Counted from the stretch's first letter, positions 36,890 through 43,681 are shown. The stretch: 64,000 nt of DNA from Burkholderiaceae bacterium (GCA_040079635.1 JBEBJY010000003.1:34566-98565); one strand, 5' to 3'. The notes: generated from the sequence alone by a model not told the origin. Translations and numbers: made by a program.

Positions 36890-39220
36890 ATGAACGCCTC
36901 AGTCGACGTATCTTTATTCGCACGCGCCGCCAAGCCGCTTTCCAGCTACAAAAAGTACTGGGCGGCCCGCTTTGGCATGGCCAAGTTTTTGCCGATGAGC
37001 CGTGCGGAAATGACCGCGTTAGGATGGGACAGCTGCGACATCATTTTGGTGACGGGCGACGCCTACGTCGACCACCCCAGCTTTGGCATGGCCGTGATCG
37101 GCAGGATGCTGGAAAACCAGGGTTTCCGTGTCGGAATCATCGCCCAACCCGACTGGCAAAGCGCCGAGCCTTTCAAGGCGCTGGGCAAACCCAATTTGTT
37201 CTTTGGCGTGACGGCAGGCAACATGGACTCCATGATCAACCGCTACACGGCGGACCGAAAAATCCGCAGCGACGACGCCTACACCCCCGGCGACATCGGC
37301 GGCAAGCGCCCCGACCGGGCAGCGATTGTCTACAGCCAGCGCTGCCGTGAAGCGTGGAACGACGTGCCGATTATTTTGGGCGGCATCGAAGGCTCGCTGC
37401 GTCGCATCGCGCATTACGATTACTGGAGCGACAAAGTGCGCCGCTCCGTGGTGGTGGACGCCAAATCTGACCTGCTGCTGTACGGCAATGCCGAACGGGC
37501 GATTGTCGAAATTGCTCACCGCCTGGCCGCCAAAGAGCCGATTACGTCGATCACCGACGTGCGCGGCACCGCGTTTGTGCAGCGCAGCAGTGTGGAAGGC
37601 TGGTTTGAGATCGACTCCACCAGCGTAGACGAAGTGGGTCGTGTGGATCAGTTGGTGAACCCCTACATGATGAGCGCCGACGTGGCACGTGAACAGGGCG
37701 GCACCTGCGTGCAAGACCCGGCTGCACCTGACGCGAAAATCGGCCTACTGGACGGAGCGATCAAACCACTCAAGTTCGTGGTCAATCCTAATTTGACCCA
37801 CAAAAACAACATGGTCAAAACGGCACGTGACAAAACCGTCATCCGCCTGCCCTCTTTTGAGAAAGTTAAATCTGACGCCGTGCTTTACGCCCACGCCAAC
37901 CGCGTGCTGCATCTGGAGACCAACCCCGGCAACGCCCGCGCGCTGGTGCAAGCCCACGGCGAAGGGACGACAGCGAAAGACGTGTGGATCAACCCGCCGC
38001 CAATCCCGCTGACCACGGCCGAGATGGATTTGGTGTTCGATCTGGGCTACGCACGCAGCCCGCACCCGAGCTACGCAGACGCCAATGGCAGCCATGACCA
38101 CAGCACCAAAATCCCCGCGTGGGAAATGATTCGTTTCAGTGTCAACATCATGCGCGGCTGCTTTGGCGGCTGCACGTTTTGCTCCATCACCGAGCATGAA
38201 GGCCGCATCATCCAAAGCCGCAGTGAAGACTCGGTCATCAAGGAAGTTGAGGCGATTCGCGACTCGGTCAAAGGCTTCACAGGCACGATCTCTGACCTAG
38301 GCGGCCCAACAGCCAATATGTACCGCATCGGCTGCAAAACCCCCGAGATTGAAGCCGCCTGCCGCAAACCGAGCTGCGTCTACCCCGGCATTTGCCCGAA
38401 CCTGAACACCAGCCACGCCCCGCTGATCAACATGTACCGCCGCGCCCGGGCGCTCAAAGGCGTGAAAAAGATCCTGATCAGCTCCGGCCTGCGCTACGAC
38501 CTGGCCGTGCAAAGCCCCGAATACGTCAAAGAACTGGTGACCCACCACGTCGGCGGCTACCTGAAAATCGCCCCCGAGCACACCGAGCAGGGCCCGCTCA
38601 CCAAGATGATGAAGCCAGGCATCGGCAGCTACGACAAGTTCAAAACCTTGTTTGAAAAGTACAGCGCCGAGGCGGGCAAAAAGCAGTACCTCATCCCCTA
38701 CTTCATCGCCGCCCACCCCGGCACGAGTGACGAGGACATGATGCATTTAGCCATTTGGTTAAAAAAGAACGGTTTCCGCGCCGACCAGGTGCAAACCTTC
38801 TATCCATCGCCCATGGCCACCGCCACAACGATGTACCACACCAACAAAAACCCCCTGCGCAAAATCACCCGCGACAGTGAAACGGTCGATATCGTGCGCG
38901 GCGACAAACGCCGCCGCCTGCACAAAGCCTTCCTCCGTTACCACGACGCCAACAATTGGCCGCTGTTACGCGAAGCCCTCAAAACCATGGGCCGCTCTGA
39001 TTTGATAGGCAACGGCAAACACCACCTCATCCCCACCTTCCAGCCGCTCAACAGCACCGGCTACACCAGCGCGCGTAAAAAGAATTCGACGTCTGATTCG
39101 GGAACGTCTGCTGCGCTGAATGTGCAGGCTAAGCCGGGTCGCATTTTGACCCAGCATACCGGCTTGCCGCCTCGGGATAATGGGTCTAAGGTGTTTAAGG
39201 CTGGGAAACCGAGAAAATAG
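36890..39220 (+). CDS. ygiQ: YgiQ-family radical SAM protein (UPF0313)
   Basis: 776 aa with [34 protein letters not shown] and a CFGGCTFC radical-SAM cluster motif, plus a basic C-terminal tail. Confidence 0.9.
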
Positions 39221-39258
39221 TGAAAATCGTGGCTTACCAAGCCCAAAATGATTTACTT

Positions 39259-39564
39259 ATGAATACTGATTTAAAGTTAGTGGTAGCGTTTATTTGTGAT
39301 GGAATAAAGATTAACTACTATCAACAAAGATCCAAAGATACTATATATCTTGAAAAAGAGTATCTATGTGCGGTTGACAATGATGGCAAAGAACTATGGA
39401 GCTACATACCGCCAAATGATGAATTTGATCAGCCAATATGGATGGGTGGAGCTGAAGCAACCTTAGATAATAAGTTCGTACACGTTGGGCAAAGCAATAA
39501 TCGCCAACTAAAAATAGATCCTCATACTGGACGCATTTTTTCAAATATATACCAGCATACTTAG
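39259..39564 (+). CDS. Hypothetical protein; visibly AT-rich orphan ORF
   Basis: The ORF-track entry 39220..39564 starts at a GTG overlapping the ygiQ stop. I chose the ATG at 39259 (MNTDLKLVV...). I recognise no motif. Confidence 0.35.
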   Translation: MNTDLKLVVAFICDGIKINYYQQRSKDTIYLEKEYLCAVDNDGKELWSYIPPNDEFDQPIWMGGAEATLDNKFVHVGQSNNRQLKIDPHTGRIFSNIYQHT

Positions 39565-39580
39565 ATGCAAGTAGCATACA

Positions 39581-39632
39581 ACTACAATCATAAAGCATAG
39601 CACCTTAGGCAATAAATACGCCGGCTACAGCC
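39581..39632 (+). repeat. Dispersed 50-bp element, intergenic; left bracket of the DUF167-higBA module
   Basis: actacaatcataaagcatagcaccttaggcaataaatacgccggctacagcc. Confidence 0.9.
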
Positions 39633-39659
39633 AAATTTACCCTCTAAATAGAGCACCCT

Positions 39660-39887
39660 TTGCCCACCATCCTACAAATCAAAGTCAAACCCAACGCTAT
39701 TCAAAGCAGCTTGACGCAGGCGGAGGATGGGACTTGGGTGGCGCAGATAAAATCGCCGCCTGTAGATGGCAAGGCTAACCTTGAATTAATTGACTTGGTA
39801 GCCGCACAGATGGGTTGTGCGAAGGCTGCGGTGAGCATAAAAACTGGATCTTCCGGGCGGGTGAAACTGGTAAGGGTTGAGGATTAA
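39660..39887 (+). CDS. DUF167 (YggU-like) family protein
   Basis: 75 aa. L.IKVKPNA.....SPPVDGKANLELIDLVA...G...V.I..G.SGR.K matches the YggU pattern. The start codon is TTG. Confidence 0.55.
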   Translation: MPTILQIKVKPNAIQSSLTQAEDGTWVAQIKSPPVDGKANLELIDLVAAQMGCAKAAVSIKTGSSGRVKLVRVED

Positions 39888-39997
39888 TACCCATATATAC
39901 TGTACGAATTATCAGTACAATTATTAGCACTCGCAATAAAAACTGAAATCATTGTATGAACAACCACCGCATAAAACCAAAATCAAATCGACAAAAT

Positions 39998-40012
39998 ATA
40001 TCAATTTGATAT
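39998..40012. promoter_or_regulatory. Palindrome ATATCAA-T-TTGATAT overlapping a TATAAT-like box just upstream of higB (candidate HigA operator/promoter)
   Basis: tcgaca-N17-ataatt with the 7-bp-arm palindrome. It ends 9 nt before the higB GTG. Confidence 0.3.
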
Positions 40013-40020
40013 AATTATCC

Positions 40021-40323
40021 GTGCACATCATCTCCATCAGAATGCTTAGAGAATTTTGGCTGAAGCATCCGACTGCTGAAAGCGTGTTGCGAGAGTGGCA
40101 TACCGTGGTAGAAAACACGGATTTTAGAGATTTCAGCCATGTGCGCGAGTTCTTTAACAGTGCGGATTACGCTGCGCCGTACACGATTTTTAATGTTGCA
40201 GGTAACAACTTTCGACTGGTGGTCATCGTCAGATACAGTTTTAAGAGGGTCTATATTCATAAAGTGATGACGCACCGCGAATATGACGACTGGAATAAGC
40301 TCTACAGAAGAGGGAAAACATAA
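40021..40323 (+). CDS. higB: Type II toxin HigB-family mRNA interferase
   Basis: 100 aa. The N-terminus (M)HIISIRMLREFWLKHPTAESVLREWHTVV is typical of the HigB toxin family. It sits upstream of an HTH antitoxin with only 1 nt between them. The start codon is GTG. Confidence 0.75.
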   Translation: MHIISIRMLREFWLKHPTAESVLREWHTVVENTDFRDFSHVREFFNSADYAAPYTIFNVAGNNFRLVVIVRYSFKRVYIHKVMTHREYDDWNKLYRRGKT

Positions 40324-40324
40324 T

Positions 40325-40753
40325 ATGCAAGCAACTCAAACCCAATTCAACATTCAAAACTTGCAAGCTTCTTGGCAAGCTTTTGATGCCATGGCGCACC
40401 TTCGCCCTATTCACTCTGAGGCCGATTTTGAACGCATGTCTTCAATGATGAACGCGCTGTTGGACGATGTGGGTGACGACGAAGAGCACCCTTTGTCTGG
40501 CCTGCTCGAATTGGTCAGTGATTTGATCCATCGCTACGAGCAAACGCATCACGCCATTGAAGCCGCCGCGCCCAAAGACGTACTGCGCTTCTTGATGGAA
40601 TCGCGCGGGCTCAAGCAAGATGATTTGTCCACCCTTGTGCCACAAAGCAACCTATCAGCTATTTTGGCGGGTAAACGCAAAATCAGCGCTGCGCTGGCGG
40701 GTAAGCTGGGTAAATACTTCGGAATCAGCGCAGCGGTGTTTGTACCTGCTTAA
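40325..40753 (+). CDS. higA: HigA-family antitoxin (C-terminal XRE-type HTH)
   Basis: 142 aa from MQATQ. The C-terminal LMESRGLKQDDLSTLVPQSNLSAILAGKRKIS is an HTH. It follows the toxin directly. Confidence 0.75.
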   Translation: MQATQTQFNIQNLQASWQAFDAMAHLRPIHSEADFERMSSMMNALLDDVGDDEEHPLSGLLELVSDLIHRYEQTHHAIEAAAPKDVLRFLMESRGLKQDDLSTLVPQSNLSAILAGKRKISAALAGKLGKYFGISAAVFVPA

Positions 40754-40757
40754 ATAT

Positions 40758-40808
40758 GCATCTAGTCGGCGTATTTATTGCCTAAGGTGCTATTAAATTT
40801 ATAGTATA
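40758..40808 (-). repeat. Dispersed 50-bp element, intergenic; right bracket of the DUF167-higBA module
   Basis: gcatctagtcggcgtatttattgcctaaggtgctattaaatttatagtatatt. It shares a 27-mer, atagcaccttaggcaataaatacgccg, with the copy at 39581. Confidence 0.9.
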
Positions 40809-40819
40809 TTTCAATTCAA

Positions 40820-41443
40820 ATGAACCAACACGCCGATACCTACTTCACCGCCGGCTGCGGACGCTGCGCCAAGGGCGGCACGCCTGCCTGCAAGGTCAAC
40901 ACTTGGGCTGCAGAACTGGCGGCTTTGCGGGGTTTGGTGCTGGACGCTGGGTTGACTGAGGAATGCAAATGGGGCGTGCCTTGCTATACCTCCGATAAAA
41001 ATAACATCGTTTTAATTCACTCATTCAAAGAATATTGCGCACTGTTGTTTATCAAAGGCGCTTTGCTGAAGGATGCCAAGGGGATTTTGATTCAGCAAAC
41101 CGAGAATGTGCAAGGCGGGCGGCAGCTGCGGTTTACGGATGTTCATGAGATAACCAAGCTGAAACCTACCATCAAAGCCTACCTGCAAGAAGCCATTTCG
41201 GTGGAAAAGGCAGGTTTAAAAGTAGCCAAAAAAGAAACGGCAGAATTTGCCATGCCGGAAGAGTTTCAAGCAAAATTGGACACATCCCCAGCCCTGAAAA
41301 CCGCTTTTGAAGCGCTCACACCGGGGCGGCAACGTGGGTATTTGCTGCATTTTGCTGCTGCCAAACAATCCAAAACCCGAGAAGCTCGGATTGAGAAATG
41401 CACACCGCAGATTTTGAAAGGTAAGGGTTTGCTGGATTCATGA
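40820..41443 (+). CDS. YdeI/DUF1801-like family protein
   Basis: 207 aa with an N-terminal CGRC...C cluster and a C-terminal ...PGRQRGYLLHF..AKQ..TR..RIEK pattern. Confidence 0.55.
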   Translation: MNQHADTYFTAGCGRCAKGGTPACKVNTWAAELAALRGLVLDAGLTEECKWGVPCYTSDKNNIVLIHSFKEYCALLFIKGALLKDAKGILIQQTENVQGGRQLRFTDVHEITKLKPTIKAYLQEAISVEKAGLKVAKKETAEFAMPEEFQAKLDTSPALKTAFEALTPGRQRGYLLHFAAAKQSKTREARIEKCTPQILKGKGLLDS

Positions 41444-42072
41444 GTAAGCTTTTACCCATCGCCACCCTGCTTTATTGGCTTGATTTACTTGGCGTGGCTG
41501 TTTTTGCCACGAGCGGAACGCTGGCTGGGTTGGCTGCACGCTTAGATATATTGGGGGTTCTGGTGCTAGCTTCTAGCACGGCTGTGGGCGGCGGTACGAT
41601 TCGGGATGTTTTGCTGGGTCGTTACCCCATTTTTTGGATCAAAGACTCTGGGCCTATTTATGCCGTTTTAGCGGCTACTGCATGTACATTAATTTGGGTT
41701 CATTACCGCCCAATTCCTATGAATGCGCTGTTGATTGCCGATGCACTCGGGCTGGCGTTGTTTGCCATTTCAGGCGCTCAAGTTGCCGAAAAAGCGGGTT
41801 GCCGCTTGCCTGTGGTTGTGCTGATGGGCACGCTGACAGGTGCTGGTGGCGGTGTTTTGCGGGATTTAATGTCTGCAAAAATCCCGCTGATTTTGCGGCA
41901 GGACATTTATGCATCAGCCGCTATTGCTGGCATTTTGGTTTACGCACTGCTGCGCAAAGCAAATGTACCCACGGCCGGAGCGTTTGCAGCAGGCTTTTTA
42001 ACGGTTGCTTTCACCCGCTTAGCGGCCATCAACTACGGCTTAGAGTTGCCTGTATTTTCGTTGCCGCAATAA
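41440..42072 (+). CDS. Trimeric intracellular cation channel / UPF0126 (YadS/YicG-like) membrane protein
   Basis: 210 aa with two internal repeats, each carrying a GGG(T/V)(I/L)RD(V/L)L motif. Confidence 0.7.
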   Translation: MSKLLPIATLLYWLDLLGVAVFATSGTLAGLAARLDILGVLVLASSTAVGGGTIRDVLLGRYPIFWIKDSGPIYAVLAATACTLIWVHYRPIPMNALLIADALGLALFAISGAQVAEKAGCRLPVVVLMGTLTGAGGGVLRDLMSAKIPLILRQDIYASAAIAGILVYALLRKANVPTAGAFAAGFLTVAFTRLAAINYGLELPVFSLPQ

Positions 42073-42109
42073 AACGCTTTAAACCCAGTTTTTAATCTTG
42101 TCCACAACC

Positions 42110-43681
42110 ATGTCTAAAACAACTTTACCTACAACGACACCTGTTTTAATCGCCGGAGGGGGCCCTGTTGGGCTTACTTTAGCCGCGTTACTTGCCAGTT
42201 TTGGCATACGCAGCGTGGTGATTGAAAACGACCCGTCTTACTGCACCGGCAGCCGGGCGATTTGTATGTCGCGGCGCTCGCAGGAGATTTTGGGCTGGGT
42301 GGGTGCGGACAAGCCGCTAGTAGCGAAAGGCTTGTCATGGGTGGGTGGGCGCAGTTATTACCGCGACACCGAGGTGCTGCACTTCCAAATGCCCAACGAC
42401 CCCACGCAGCGTTTTGCGCCTATGGTGAACATTCAGCAGTATTTTGCGGAGCAATATGCACACGAGGCCGCTCAAAAATATGGTGATTTGGTGGCTGTGC
42501 GCTGGAATTGCACCGTAAAAGCGGTTCGAGAAATCAAAGACGGCAATGAAGTCGATGTCGTCGACGCTGACGGCCAAACGCAAACCATCCTTGCCGATTG
42601 GCTGGTCGCCTGTGACGGTGGCCGCAGCACCGTGCGCGAGCAGTTGGGCTTGCAGCTGCAGGGCATGCAGTACGACGGCAAATATGTGATTGTGGATATC
42701 CGCCAAAAAACCCAGCGCGATGTCGAGCGGCTGGCTTGGTTTGACCCGCCTAGCAACCCTGGCTCGACCATTTTGATGCATCGCCAGCCTGAGGATGTGT
42801 GGCGGATTGACTACCAAATCCGCGATGAAGAAGACCCCGTGGAAGCCATCAAACCTGAAAACGTGCTGCCCCGCGTGCAAAGCCACCTAACGATGATTGG
42901 AGAAAACGAGCCATGGGAGCCACTTTGGATTTCGATTTACAACGCCAAATGCCTGAGTTTGGAGAAATACAGGCACAACCGCGTGCTGTTTGCGGGGGAT
43001 GCAGCGCATTTGGTGCCGATTTTTGGCGTGCGCGGGTTGAACTCTGGGCTGGATGATGCGGGCAACTTGGCGTGGAAGCTGGCGTGTGTCATCAACGGCA
43101 CGTCGCCAGAGAGCTTGCTGGACACCTATTCCACCGAGCGCGTGCACGCCGCGCATGAAAACATGGCTTTCGGCGCGAAAAGCACAGAATTCATGGCGCC
43201 GCCGAACTTTGCCTTCAAGCTGATGCGGGAGGCGACGCTGAAGTTGGCGCTGGCGGATGAAAAAGTGCGCTCGCTGATTAATCCACGGCAATCGACGCCG
43301 ATTCATTACGTTGGCTCAGCTTTGAATGTGCCAGATGGTGATGCGTGGAGCAGCGAGTTAACCGCACCGGGCATGCCGATGCCAGAGGTGTTGCTTGAGG
43401 ACGGATCGCATTTGACGCAGCAGTTTGGTAAAAGCTTTGTCTGCATCTTCTTGGGAACGGCTTTAGAACAGTCAAAACAGATCAATTTAGAGCAAAACAG
43501 CATCAAACTTTGTAGCATCTTAGGCAATAAATACGCCGGATACAGCCAGTTTGGACTAATAAATCCGAGTGAATCAGCCCTGATATTGGTACGACCAGAC
43601 GGCTATGTGATGGGGCGCTGGAAAGGCTCAGACGTTGCGCCTGTGTTGGCTGCGATGAAGCAAACGGGAGTGACTTTATGA
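42110..43681 (+). CDS. FAD-dependent aromatic-ring monooxygenase (PheA/TfdB/MhpA family)
   Basis: Motifs IAGGGPVGLTLA, CDGGRSTVR and GDAAHLVPIFGVRGLNSGLDDAGNLAWKL. I chose the ATG at 42110; the ORF-track TTG start is 42098. Confidence 0.8.
   Translation: MSKTTLPTTTPVLIAGGGPVGLTLAALLASFGIRSVVIENDPSYCTGSRAICMSRRSQEILGWVGADKPLVAKGLSWVGGRSYYRDTEVLHFQMPNDPTQRFAPMVNIQQYFAEQYAHEAAQKYGDLVAVRWNCTVKAVREIKDGNEVDVVDADGQTQTILADWLVACDGGRSTVREQLGLQLQGMQYDGKYVIVDIRQKTQRDVERLAWFDPPSNPGSTILMHRQPEDVWRIDYQIRDEEDPVEAIKPENVLPRVQSHLTMIGENEPWEPLWISIYNAKCLSLEKYRHNRVLFAGDAAHLVPIFGVRGLNSGLDDAGNLAWKLACVINGTSPESLLDTYSTERVHAAHENMAFGAKSTEFMAPPNFAFKLMREATLKLALADEKVRSLINPRQSTPIHYVGSALNVPDGDAWSSELTAPGMPMPEVLLEDGSHLTQQFGKSFVCIFLGTALEQSKQINLEQNSIKLCSILGNKYAGYSQFGLINPSESALILVRPDGYVMGRWKGSDVAPVLAAMKQTGVTL
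43504..43547 (+). repeat. Dispersed 50-bp element in frame inside the FAD monooxygenase gene
   Basis: caaactttgtagcatcttaggcaataaatacgccggatacagcc, translated as KLCSILGNKYAGYSQ. Confidence 0.85.

Follow-up and report, generated by a model that had tools for sequence, protein, structure and literature searches.

Facing copies of a 60-nt repeat around a higBA module in Polaromonas: probably an incidental pair within a mosaic cassette hot spot

In a stretch of 64,000 nucleotides from a Burkholderiaceae bacterium (GCA_040079635.1 JBEBJY010000003.1:34566-98565; hereafter the window, which always means the whole stretch), a toxin-antitoxin pair, higB-higA, and a DUF167 gene lie between two copies of a ~60-nt repeat that face each other, and the question is whether these copies are the ends of one mobile unit or chance neighbours in a region where small genes come and go. 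The copies share an identical 27-mer, ATAGCACCTTAGGCAATAAATACGCCG, at 39597-39623 (+) and 40767-40793 (-), which is part of inverted arms of 43 nt (39597-39639 and 40751-40793) that are 88% complementary, differ at 5 of 43 positions and are spaced 1111 nt apart. The first-pass annotation of the window read this arrangement as a composite cassette bracketed by miniature inverted-repeat transposable elements (MITEs), or else as the scar of the recombination through which the toxin-antitoxin module entered. Several of its observations are correct: the 27-mer is an exact match at both sites, the spacer variant CACC occurs in no other copy in the window, and Pfam matches identify DUF167, higB and higA as the three genes enclosed. 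Our own reading, to which we give a probability of roughly 60%, is that a genus-specific repeat punctuates a cassette hot spot at this locus, that the window holds a mosaic built in several steps, and that the inverted pair is incidental. According to this reading, the two copies would be independent members of a dispersed family that sits at junctions between small accessory-gene cassettes, and the stretch between ygiQ and a FAD monooxygenase gene would be one in which toxin-antitoxin modules and small genes are gained, lost and reshuffled, driven by recombination at or next to element copies. The parts of the mosaic would be a probable orphan immunity gene, an old EL(+)-DUF167 block (EL standing for an element copy, with its strand), an SOS-box/bro-N remnant, higBA, and an EL(-)-ydeI block. 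The higBA genes, of the Escherichia coli K-12 HigBA type, would be an accessory module long resident in the island in this lineage, and the facing orientation and the shared 27-mer would reflect at most a short gene-conversion tract across the 4-nt spacer. Of all this, the genes present, the mosaic homology, the sites with a single copy and the pair statistics are direct results.

The family from which the pair is drawn was surveyed in the 3.08-Mb Polaromonas genome (50.8% GC) to which the window belongs. The element, with the consensus AATTTGCTATAAATTTAATAGCTacTTAGGCAATAAATACGCCGGCTAGAGgCaTATTT, has 663 core matches (up to 4 mismatches allowed, and none in a shuffled control) and 735 nhmmer matches in this genome, a density of roughly one per 4 kb. 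The 19 genomes of the genus all contain it, with core counts of 79-616, and 22 other genera of the order have 0-1, so the repeat is specific to this Polaromonas genus-level group. Within such a family, the pair is statistically ordinary. Over the 43-nt arm it is identical at 38 of 43 positions, which places it in the top 4.4% of all pairs, and for each arm about 50 other copies equal or beat the similarity of the partner; over the full 59 nt it is identical at 41 positions, the family mean being 41.3. The description of the two as the "most similar" copies is therefore right for the longest exact run and wrong for the full length, at which they are average. Exact runs of 27 nt or more are shared by 1.4% of random and 1.5% of adjacent pairs, and consequently about 1.1 such runs are expected among the 78 pairs of copies in the window. 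Adjacent copies show no extra likeness that would indicate local duplication (31.96/43 versus 31.81/43 for random pairs). The first-pass annotation had also stated that its claim would fail if the 27-mer variant were common genome-wide; the genome has six exact occurrences of the 27-mer, 20 of 657 copies (~3%) have the ACCT spacer, and the pair is not special in this respect. The sequence facts hold, yet nothing in them goes beyond chance.

The two arms, moreover, have separate histories. The left copy and DUF167 together align with congener G004 (90% nucleotide identity over window positions 39596-39847) and with G006 (80.5% over 39597-39887), and the left copy is orthologous to the copy located ~20 nt upstream of DUF167 in these two genomes. 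In G004 the order is EL(+)-DUF167 without higBA, and in G006 and G008 DUF167 leads straight into ydeI, also without higBA, with EL(+) preceding DUF167 in G006. In G004 the orthologue already has the CACC spacer, as does the ygiQ-proximal copy of four relatives. In G013 and G016, both with the EL(-)-ydeI arrangement, the right copy runs on into ydeI (alignment from 40751/40763 on), and it is continuous with higA in L051, a contig of a metagenome-assembled genome (MAG), at 86.9% identity over 40313-40816; in that contig, DUF167 is located elsewhere, abutting the monooxygenase gene. The extra DNA of the window relative to G006 and G008 spans 39888-40817 and is itself composite: positions 39899-39977, which contain the LexA-box-like site, match the promoter and start of the Bro-N gene of G008 and L051, homology to higBA loci of other Polaromonas MAGs begins at ~39990, and two of these MAGs (L052, L055) carry higBA without a nearby element. 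At the nucleotide level higA is 90% identical to G018, where it has other flanks, and 87% identical to L051; the divergence of higBA between genomes (87-90% identity) is near that of ygiQ (91-93%). Because the halves of the bracketed block are distributed differently, we conclude that the block was assembled piecemeal and is not a single unit, as had been claimed for it. The ends of the block point the same way. The left copy is matched by nhmmer at 39594-39638 (positions 16-60 of the hidden Markov model, HMM), its outer 5' third being degenerate, and the right copy at 40809-40752 (HMM positions 3-60); the outer flanks, ...GCAAGTAGCATA and TTCAATTCAAATG..., have no repeat in common that could be a target-site duplication. 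A second copy of the DUF167-higBA block was not found in the genome.

The region in which these parts came together is hypervariable, as was seen when DNA downstream of ygiQ from 20 relatives was annotated using the element HMM together with the proteins encoded in the window. In 12 congeners, the interval between ygiQ (86-99% identity among orthologues) and the FAD monooxygenase gene ranges from 94 bp to ~5.7 kb with differing cargo, that is, conserved flanks enclose different whole-gene cassettes, which is the arrangement that characterises minimal mobile elements. The shortest interval is that of G014 (ygiQ-EL(-)-monooxygenase, 94 bp, one element copy), and G013 has ygiQ-EL(-)-ydeI, also with one copy. 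The expectations of a variable site downstream of ygiQ, and of single-copy sites in relatives, are thus both borne out, with higBA being an insertion or deletion relative to G006 and G008. According to Pfam, the cargo of the relatives' islands includes YafQ-RelB, PIN-MazE, HicB, an HI1420-type antidote, Phd-PIN_3, CopG and Bro-N, and element copies separate nearly all of these cassettes. In this interval, homology breakpoints lie at element copies in 35 of 125 cases versus 8.6 expected, and homology between alleles stops exactly at element edges. It should be noted that in G018 (L041 2052-3470) higA is present without higB, yafQ lies beside a relB that lacks an intact frame, and hicB is found with no hicA called; the toxin-antitoxin modules of this genome are decaying, the toxin being lost first. 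In addition, EL(+) together with ~150 nt of the yafQ 3' end forms a longer repeat that recurs in several genomes, for example at L031 3262-3440 and L039 3627-3832.

A second hot spot, the gap between livK and dnaX, was compared in 12 congeners (contig C38 of the window's own genome; L066, L071, L072-L074). The gap is empty and free of the element in G002 and G017 (75 bp) and in G013 (178 bp). It is filled in the own genome, with two cassettes and three copies, in G007, likewise with two and three, and in G018, with three cassettes and four copies; hence, each filled site has n cassettes and n+1 copies, all of them co-oriented. The cargo consists of VapC-Phd, a pair that by eye is Xre/RES-like, and cupins. 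This pattern is evidence that the element is physically tied to accessory cassettes more widely, and the usual arrangement is direct, not inverted. The rest of the genome agrees: adjacent copies 500-1500 bp apart are in direct orientation in 103 of 149 cases, facing in 26 and back to back in 20, and 77% of copies less than 1 kb apart are co-oriented without a replichore polarity behind it (Fisher p = 0.50 for GC skew and 0.77 for gene strand). The search for other inverted pairs enclosing cargo, proposed as a check on the composite cassette, returned 32 pairs facing each other across 300-1600 bp, in which the cargo is mostly housekeeping or ordinary genes (by eye, what we take to be thiolase, SSB, an AlaS fragment, GlcF and PdxH-like genes) and a toxin-antitoxin module is found in the window's pair only. 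It is the co-oriented short arrays (C38:17913-19523, C95:4034-5693, C22:34497-37333, C37:17798-19076) that often contain killer/antidote, BrnT-like, VapBC and HicAB genes or a second HigBA.

The rival that must be taken most seriously, and that we nevertheless regard as unlikely, is pure coincidence: the repeat would be a host signal (protein-binding, uptake or terminator-like) that fills permissive intergenic gaps, and the island would vary by illegitimate recombination or by homologous exchange through ygiQ and the monooxygenase gene. The chance-level pair statistics, including the lack of extra likeness between adjacent copies, fit this view, as do the island junctions that lack a copy and the genomic location of the element, which is enriched downstream of genes and found in 39% of convergent versus 9% of divergent gaps. 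Moreover, ~190 copies, about a quarter of the total, lie deep within long open reading frames (ORFs) and have two stop-free frames. The copy at 43505-43552 in the FAD monooxygenase gene reads LGNKYAGYS in frame and occupies an identical position wherever a congener has the gene, from which it follows that it is old and either tolerated or maintained. The ends of the element form a weak inverted repeat of 8 nt (AAATWTGC...GCWTATTT), its interior contains a 5-7-5 palindrome (GCTAT-N7-ATAGC), and A/T tracts recur along it every ~10-11 nt and trail weakly into the flanks; the tract spacing and short repeats suggest a bent or protein-wrapped site. A hairpin or terminator fold was not significant for the consensus and both window copies (z = -1.1 to +0.4), the element proved non-palindromic in the fold test, and Rfam found two glycine riboswitch aptamers as its only matches in the window, with no family at element copies. 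What coincidence does not explain is that nearly all cassette gaps of the islands contain a copy, compared with 9-39% of gaps genome-wide, that the empty livK-dnaX sites are entirely element-free, that homology between alleles ends at the exact edges of the element, and that short-range copies are mostly co-oriented in the absence of replichore polarity.

Several observations weigh against the hot-spot reading as well. The in-frame copies in conserved genes, about a quarter of all, fit a maintained DNA signal better than a junction site. Some junctions are free of the element, namely those between DUF167 and the LexA fragment in the window, between DUF167 and ydeI in G006 and G008, and in dinJ-higA-hicB of G018, which implies that ordinary illegitimate deletions also shape the island. 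The enrichment of breakpoints at element copies is confounded because breakpoints and elements both favour intergenic DNA. Orthologues of the right copy in L051, G016 and G013 lack its CACC spacer, which brings up a local conversion from the left copy into the right-copy spacer (chance about 3%). Finally, no recombinase could be tied to the element in a transposase search that covered PF01797 only and included no search for IntI. That search of the genome returned a single Y1 transposase, IS200-like or RAYT-like (REP-associated tyrosine transposase, REP being repetitive extragenic palindromic sequences), at C16:30639-31349 (L062) upstream of gltB. It is flanked by an inverted repeat of its own, AATTAGGGTCAGATTCCAATTA / TAATTGGAATCTGACCCCAATT, unrelated to the element, of which there is one copy nearby, on the downstream side.

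A bolder possibility, somewhat more doubtful than coincidence, is that the ~60-nt repeat is the working junction site of an undescribed cassette exchange system, whose agent would be an unknown recombinase or portable homology. Small accessory cassettes, among them toxin-antitoxin modules, immunity genes and several genes with LexA boxes, would be inserted, excised and shuffled at the copies, and the higBA-EL(-) segment of the window would be one such cassette. Such a system would explain the n cassettes with n+1 co-oriented copies, the empty sites without any copy, and the homology that ends at element edges.

That the inverted pair is itself locally active, either by gene conversion that homogenised the spacer or by inversion of the 1.1-kb segment as a switch, seems improbable. 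The spacer of the right copy, shared with the left copy and missing from its orthologues, speaks for it, and the variant, found in 3% of copies genome-wide, recurs in the ygiQ-proximal copies of four relatives; however, the informative positions number only 4-5, the arms differ at 5/43, and the inverted version of the segment is seen in no relative. The least credible reading is the composite cassette, in which inverted MITE-like copies would be the termini of a unit moving DUF167-higBA as a block: the inverted arms with their common 27-mer, the weak terminal inverted repeat of the element, and a YafQ-RelB cassette enclosed by EL(+)...EL(-) that two genomes carry between different neighbours (L033 4102-4914 and L040 1285-2099, 88% identical) are in its favour, and it is rejected as a composite transposon given the degenerate outer end, the lack of a target-site duplication at this locus and, beyond the element's own AT-rich ends, in a family-wide scan of all copies, the block that is never found as a unit or present and absent as one, the different repeat around the only Y1 transposase (in the PF01797 search), and the minority of facing pairs with their mostly housekeeping cargo. 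What is supported is a recombination hot spot punctuated by the repeat, in which the two copies are not the ends of one unit.

As for known systems, the closest analogues of the proposed hot spot would appear to be integron cassettes, the minimal mobile elements of Neisseria, and the dif modules of Acinetobacter. Integron cassettes may occur as attC clusters without an integrase, and include the higBA cassettes of the Vibrio cholerae superintegron. Like them, the Polaromonas cassettes form arrays of small, promoter-poor, toxin-antitoxin-rich units with a species-specific repeat, which is co-oriented in livK-dnaX and many arrays of the own genome and of mixed orientation in the ygiQ island. Unlike attC, the element has no imperfect palindrome or significant fold, is found genome-wide and within core genes, and has no linked integrase (no IntI search was made). 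The minimal mobile elements of Neisseria, in the passage of PMC3082526 that defines them (citing Snyder et al. 2007), resemble the present case in having no mobility gene inside and abundant small repeats in the genome, and differ, as far as that passage goes, in that the Polaromonas cassettes, whose hosts are environmental, are separated by one specific 60-nt repeat. The dif modules of Acinetobacter (PMC6449649) are also small, often encode toxin-antitoxin pairs, and are bracketed by short conserved repeats in varied contexts. However, their pdif sites are 28 bp long (11-6-11), mostly plasmid-borne and of alternating orientation, whereas the Polaromonas element is ~60 nt long, chromosomal, present in ~700 copies, also within genes, and mostly co-oriented at short range; an 11-6-11 Xer-site layout was not seen in it by eye, without a formal scan. 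The defining features that were looked at, the attC-type fold of integron cassettes and, by eye, the 11-6-11 layout of dif modules, are not seen in the element.

Among dispersed repeats, REP sequences or bacterial interspersed mosaic elements (BIMEs) with their RAYT and the Rickettsia palindromic elements (RPEs) share with the Polaromonas element a high copy number and a preference for gene ends, and RPEs also have in-frame copies within genes; the Polaromonas element differs from all of these in being non-palindromic. Mobilisation of a REP/BIME by a RAYT was considered and rejected because of this and because a repeat of the AATTAGGGTCAGATTCCAATTA type surrounds the Y1 transposase gene. In the literature, the only match in kind is a spaced motif of Polaromonas naphthalenivorans, ATAGCT(N)22CAAAAG, which has 125 copies, many between convergent genes (PMC5217627); it has the same ATAGCT start and a similar location pattern, and is not characterised further in that source. 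With respect to the module itself, E. coli K-12 HigB-HigA (YgjN-YgjM; PDB 5IFG) also has the toxin gene first and a helix-turn-helix (HTH) antitoxin, and differs in its low identity and in its locus, as well as with respect to the flanking repeat and the upstream LexA-box remnant.

The claim of a transposon-like cassette is thus ordinary and mostly wrong, and the hot spots to which it pointed have some value. In this Polaromonas group, the hot spots that harbour toxin-antitoxin and other small accessory genes are divided into segments by one genus-specific 60-nt repeat, and empty sites are on hand for comparison. Should the repeat take part in the exchange, one would have a cassette system for which no integrase is known. 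Should it take no part, the islands would remain a clean natural series in which to study the gain, decay and rewiring of toxin-antitoxin modules, with G018 (toxin lost first) as an example of decay and the position of higBA behind an SOS-box remnant as one of rewiring.

Table 1. Features of the window from ygiQ to the FAD monooxygenase gene.
Feature	Coordinates	Strand	Evidence and remarks
ygiQ, radical SAM protein, 776 aa	36890..39220	+	Pfam Radical_SAM_N, E 2.8e-132; conserved left flank
AT-rich orphan ORF (orf114), 114 aa from GTG, 101 aa from ATG 39259	39220..39564	+
Left element copy, EL(+), with 27-mer	39579..39639	+	nhmmer; degenerate 5' third
DUF167/YggU-family gene, 75 aa	39660..39887	+	PF02594, E 3.5e-19; TIGR00251
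LexA-box-like site, TACTGTACGAATTATCAGTA	39898..39917	.	19/20 identity to box at C8:56093
bro-N/dinD-like remnant (promoter and first 7 codons; ATG 39956, frame closing 40009)	39899..40009	+
Perfect palindrome, ATATCAATTTGATAT	39998..40012	.	9 nt upstream of higB; read from the sequence
higB toxin gene, 100 aa, GTG start	40021..40323	+	PF09907, E 8.1e-23, residues 20-90
higA antitoxin gene, 142 aa	40325..40753	+	HTH_3, E 2.6e-5
Right element copy, EL(-), with 27-mer	40750..40811	-	nhmmer; 3' end overlaps higA stop
ydeI-like gene (DUF1801 + OmdA)	40820..41443	+	Pfam; variably present in genus, absent from G014
Glycine-transporter-family membrane protein gene	41440..42072	+	PF03458, E 7.6e-46; at this locus in window and G008 only
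FAD monooxygenase gene	42098..43681	+	PF01494, E 4.5e-60; conserved right flank

The individual parts of the mosaic and its flanks are listed in Table 1. The region around orf114 and the left copy had been described as AT-rich, and the low GC content is real (34-37% over 39200-39600, 36% in orf114 and 37% over 39900-40100) but patchy, DUF167 having 51%. No Pfam or NCBIfam match was found for orf114. Its homologues in metagenome contigs (L059-L061; 70-71% identity) lie directly 3' of toxin C-termini that have a TNT domain (E 8.6e-24), DUF6862 and VENN-like motifs, and orf114 thus probably encodes the orphaned immunity protein of a polymorphic toxin system. In the same contigs, an element copy lies ~55 nt downstream of the orf114 homologue, in the orientation opposite to that of the window's copy.

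The HigB sequence has the RelE-fold domain of the family and aligns over its full length with E. coli HigB (5IFG_A, E 4.3e-10), and HigA matches 5IFG_B (E 3.5e-7, residues 29-140) and 5YCL_A (E 3e-7); the toxin gene comes first, and its stop is followed directly by the start of the HTH antitoxin gene, as in HigBA-type modules. NCBIfam gave no name for HigB, orf114 or YdeI. The higBA pair would be a working addiction module, and the palindrome ATATCAATTTGATAT is probably the HigA operator. Window positions 39899-39977, which hold the start of the bro-N/dinD-like remnant, are 79% identical to G008 (L032 3009-3089), where the alignment runs into a 298-aa Bro-N gene, and 75% identical to L051 564-636. 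The box at C8:56093 precedes a Y-family-polymerase-like gene, and another box lies upstream of lexA. The LexA box of the window may still be acting, and with higBA downstream of the remnant, SOS read-through into the toxin-antitoxin pair may occur.

Some element copies have a conserved 3' extension, approximately cTATTTTtCGAGGtTTT, as in the dnaX-proximal copy of the own genome (C38:19525-19560). The reverse complement of an extension of this type resembles the last codons of ygiQ (GKPRK-stop, 39195-39222), and hence the ygiQ 3' end may overlap an extended element. LexA-like boxes are also present within other element-delimited arrays of the own genome, on C95, C84, C38, C22 and C58.

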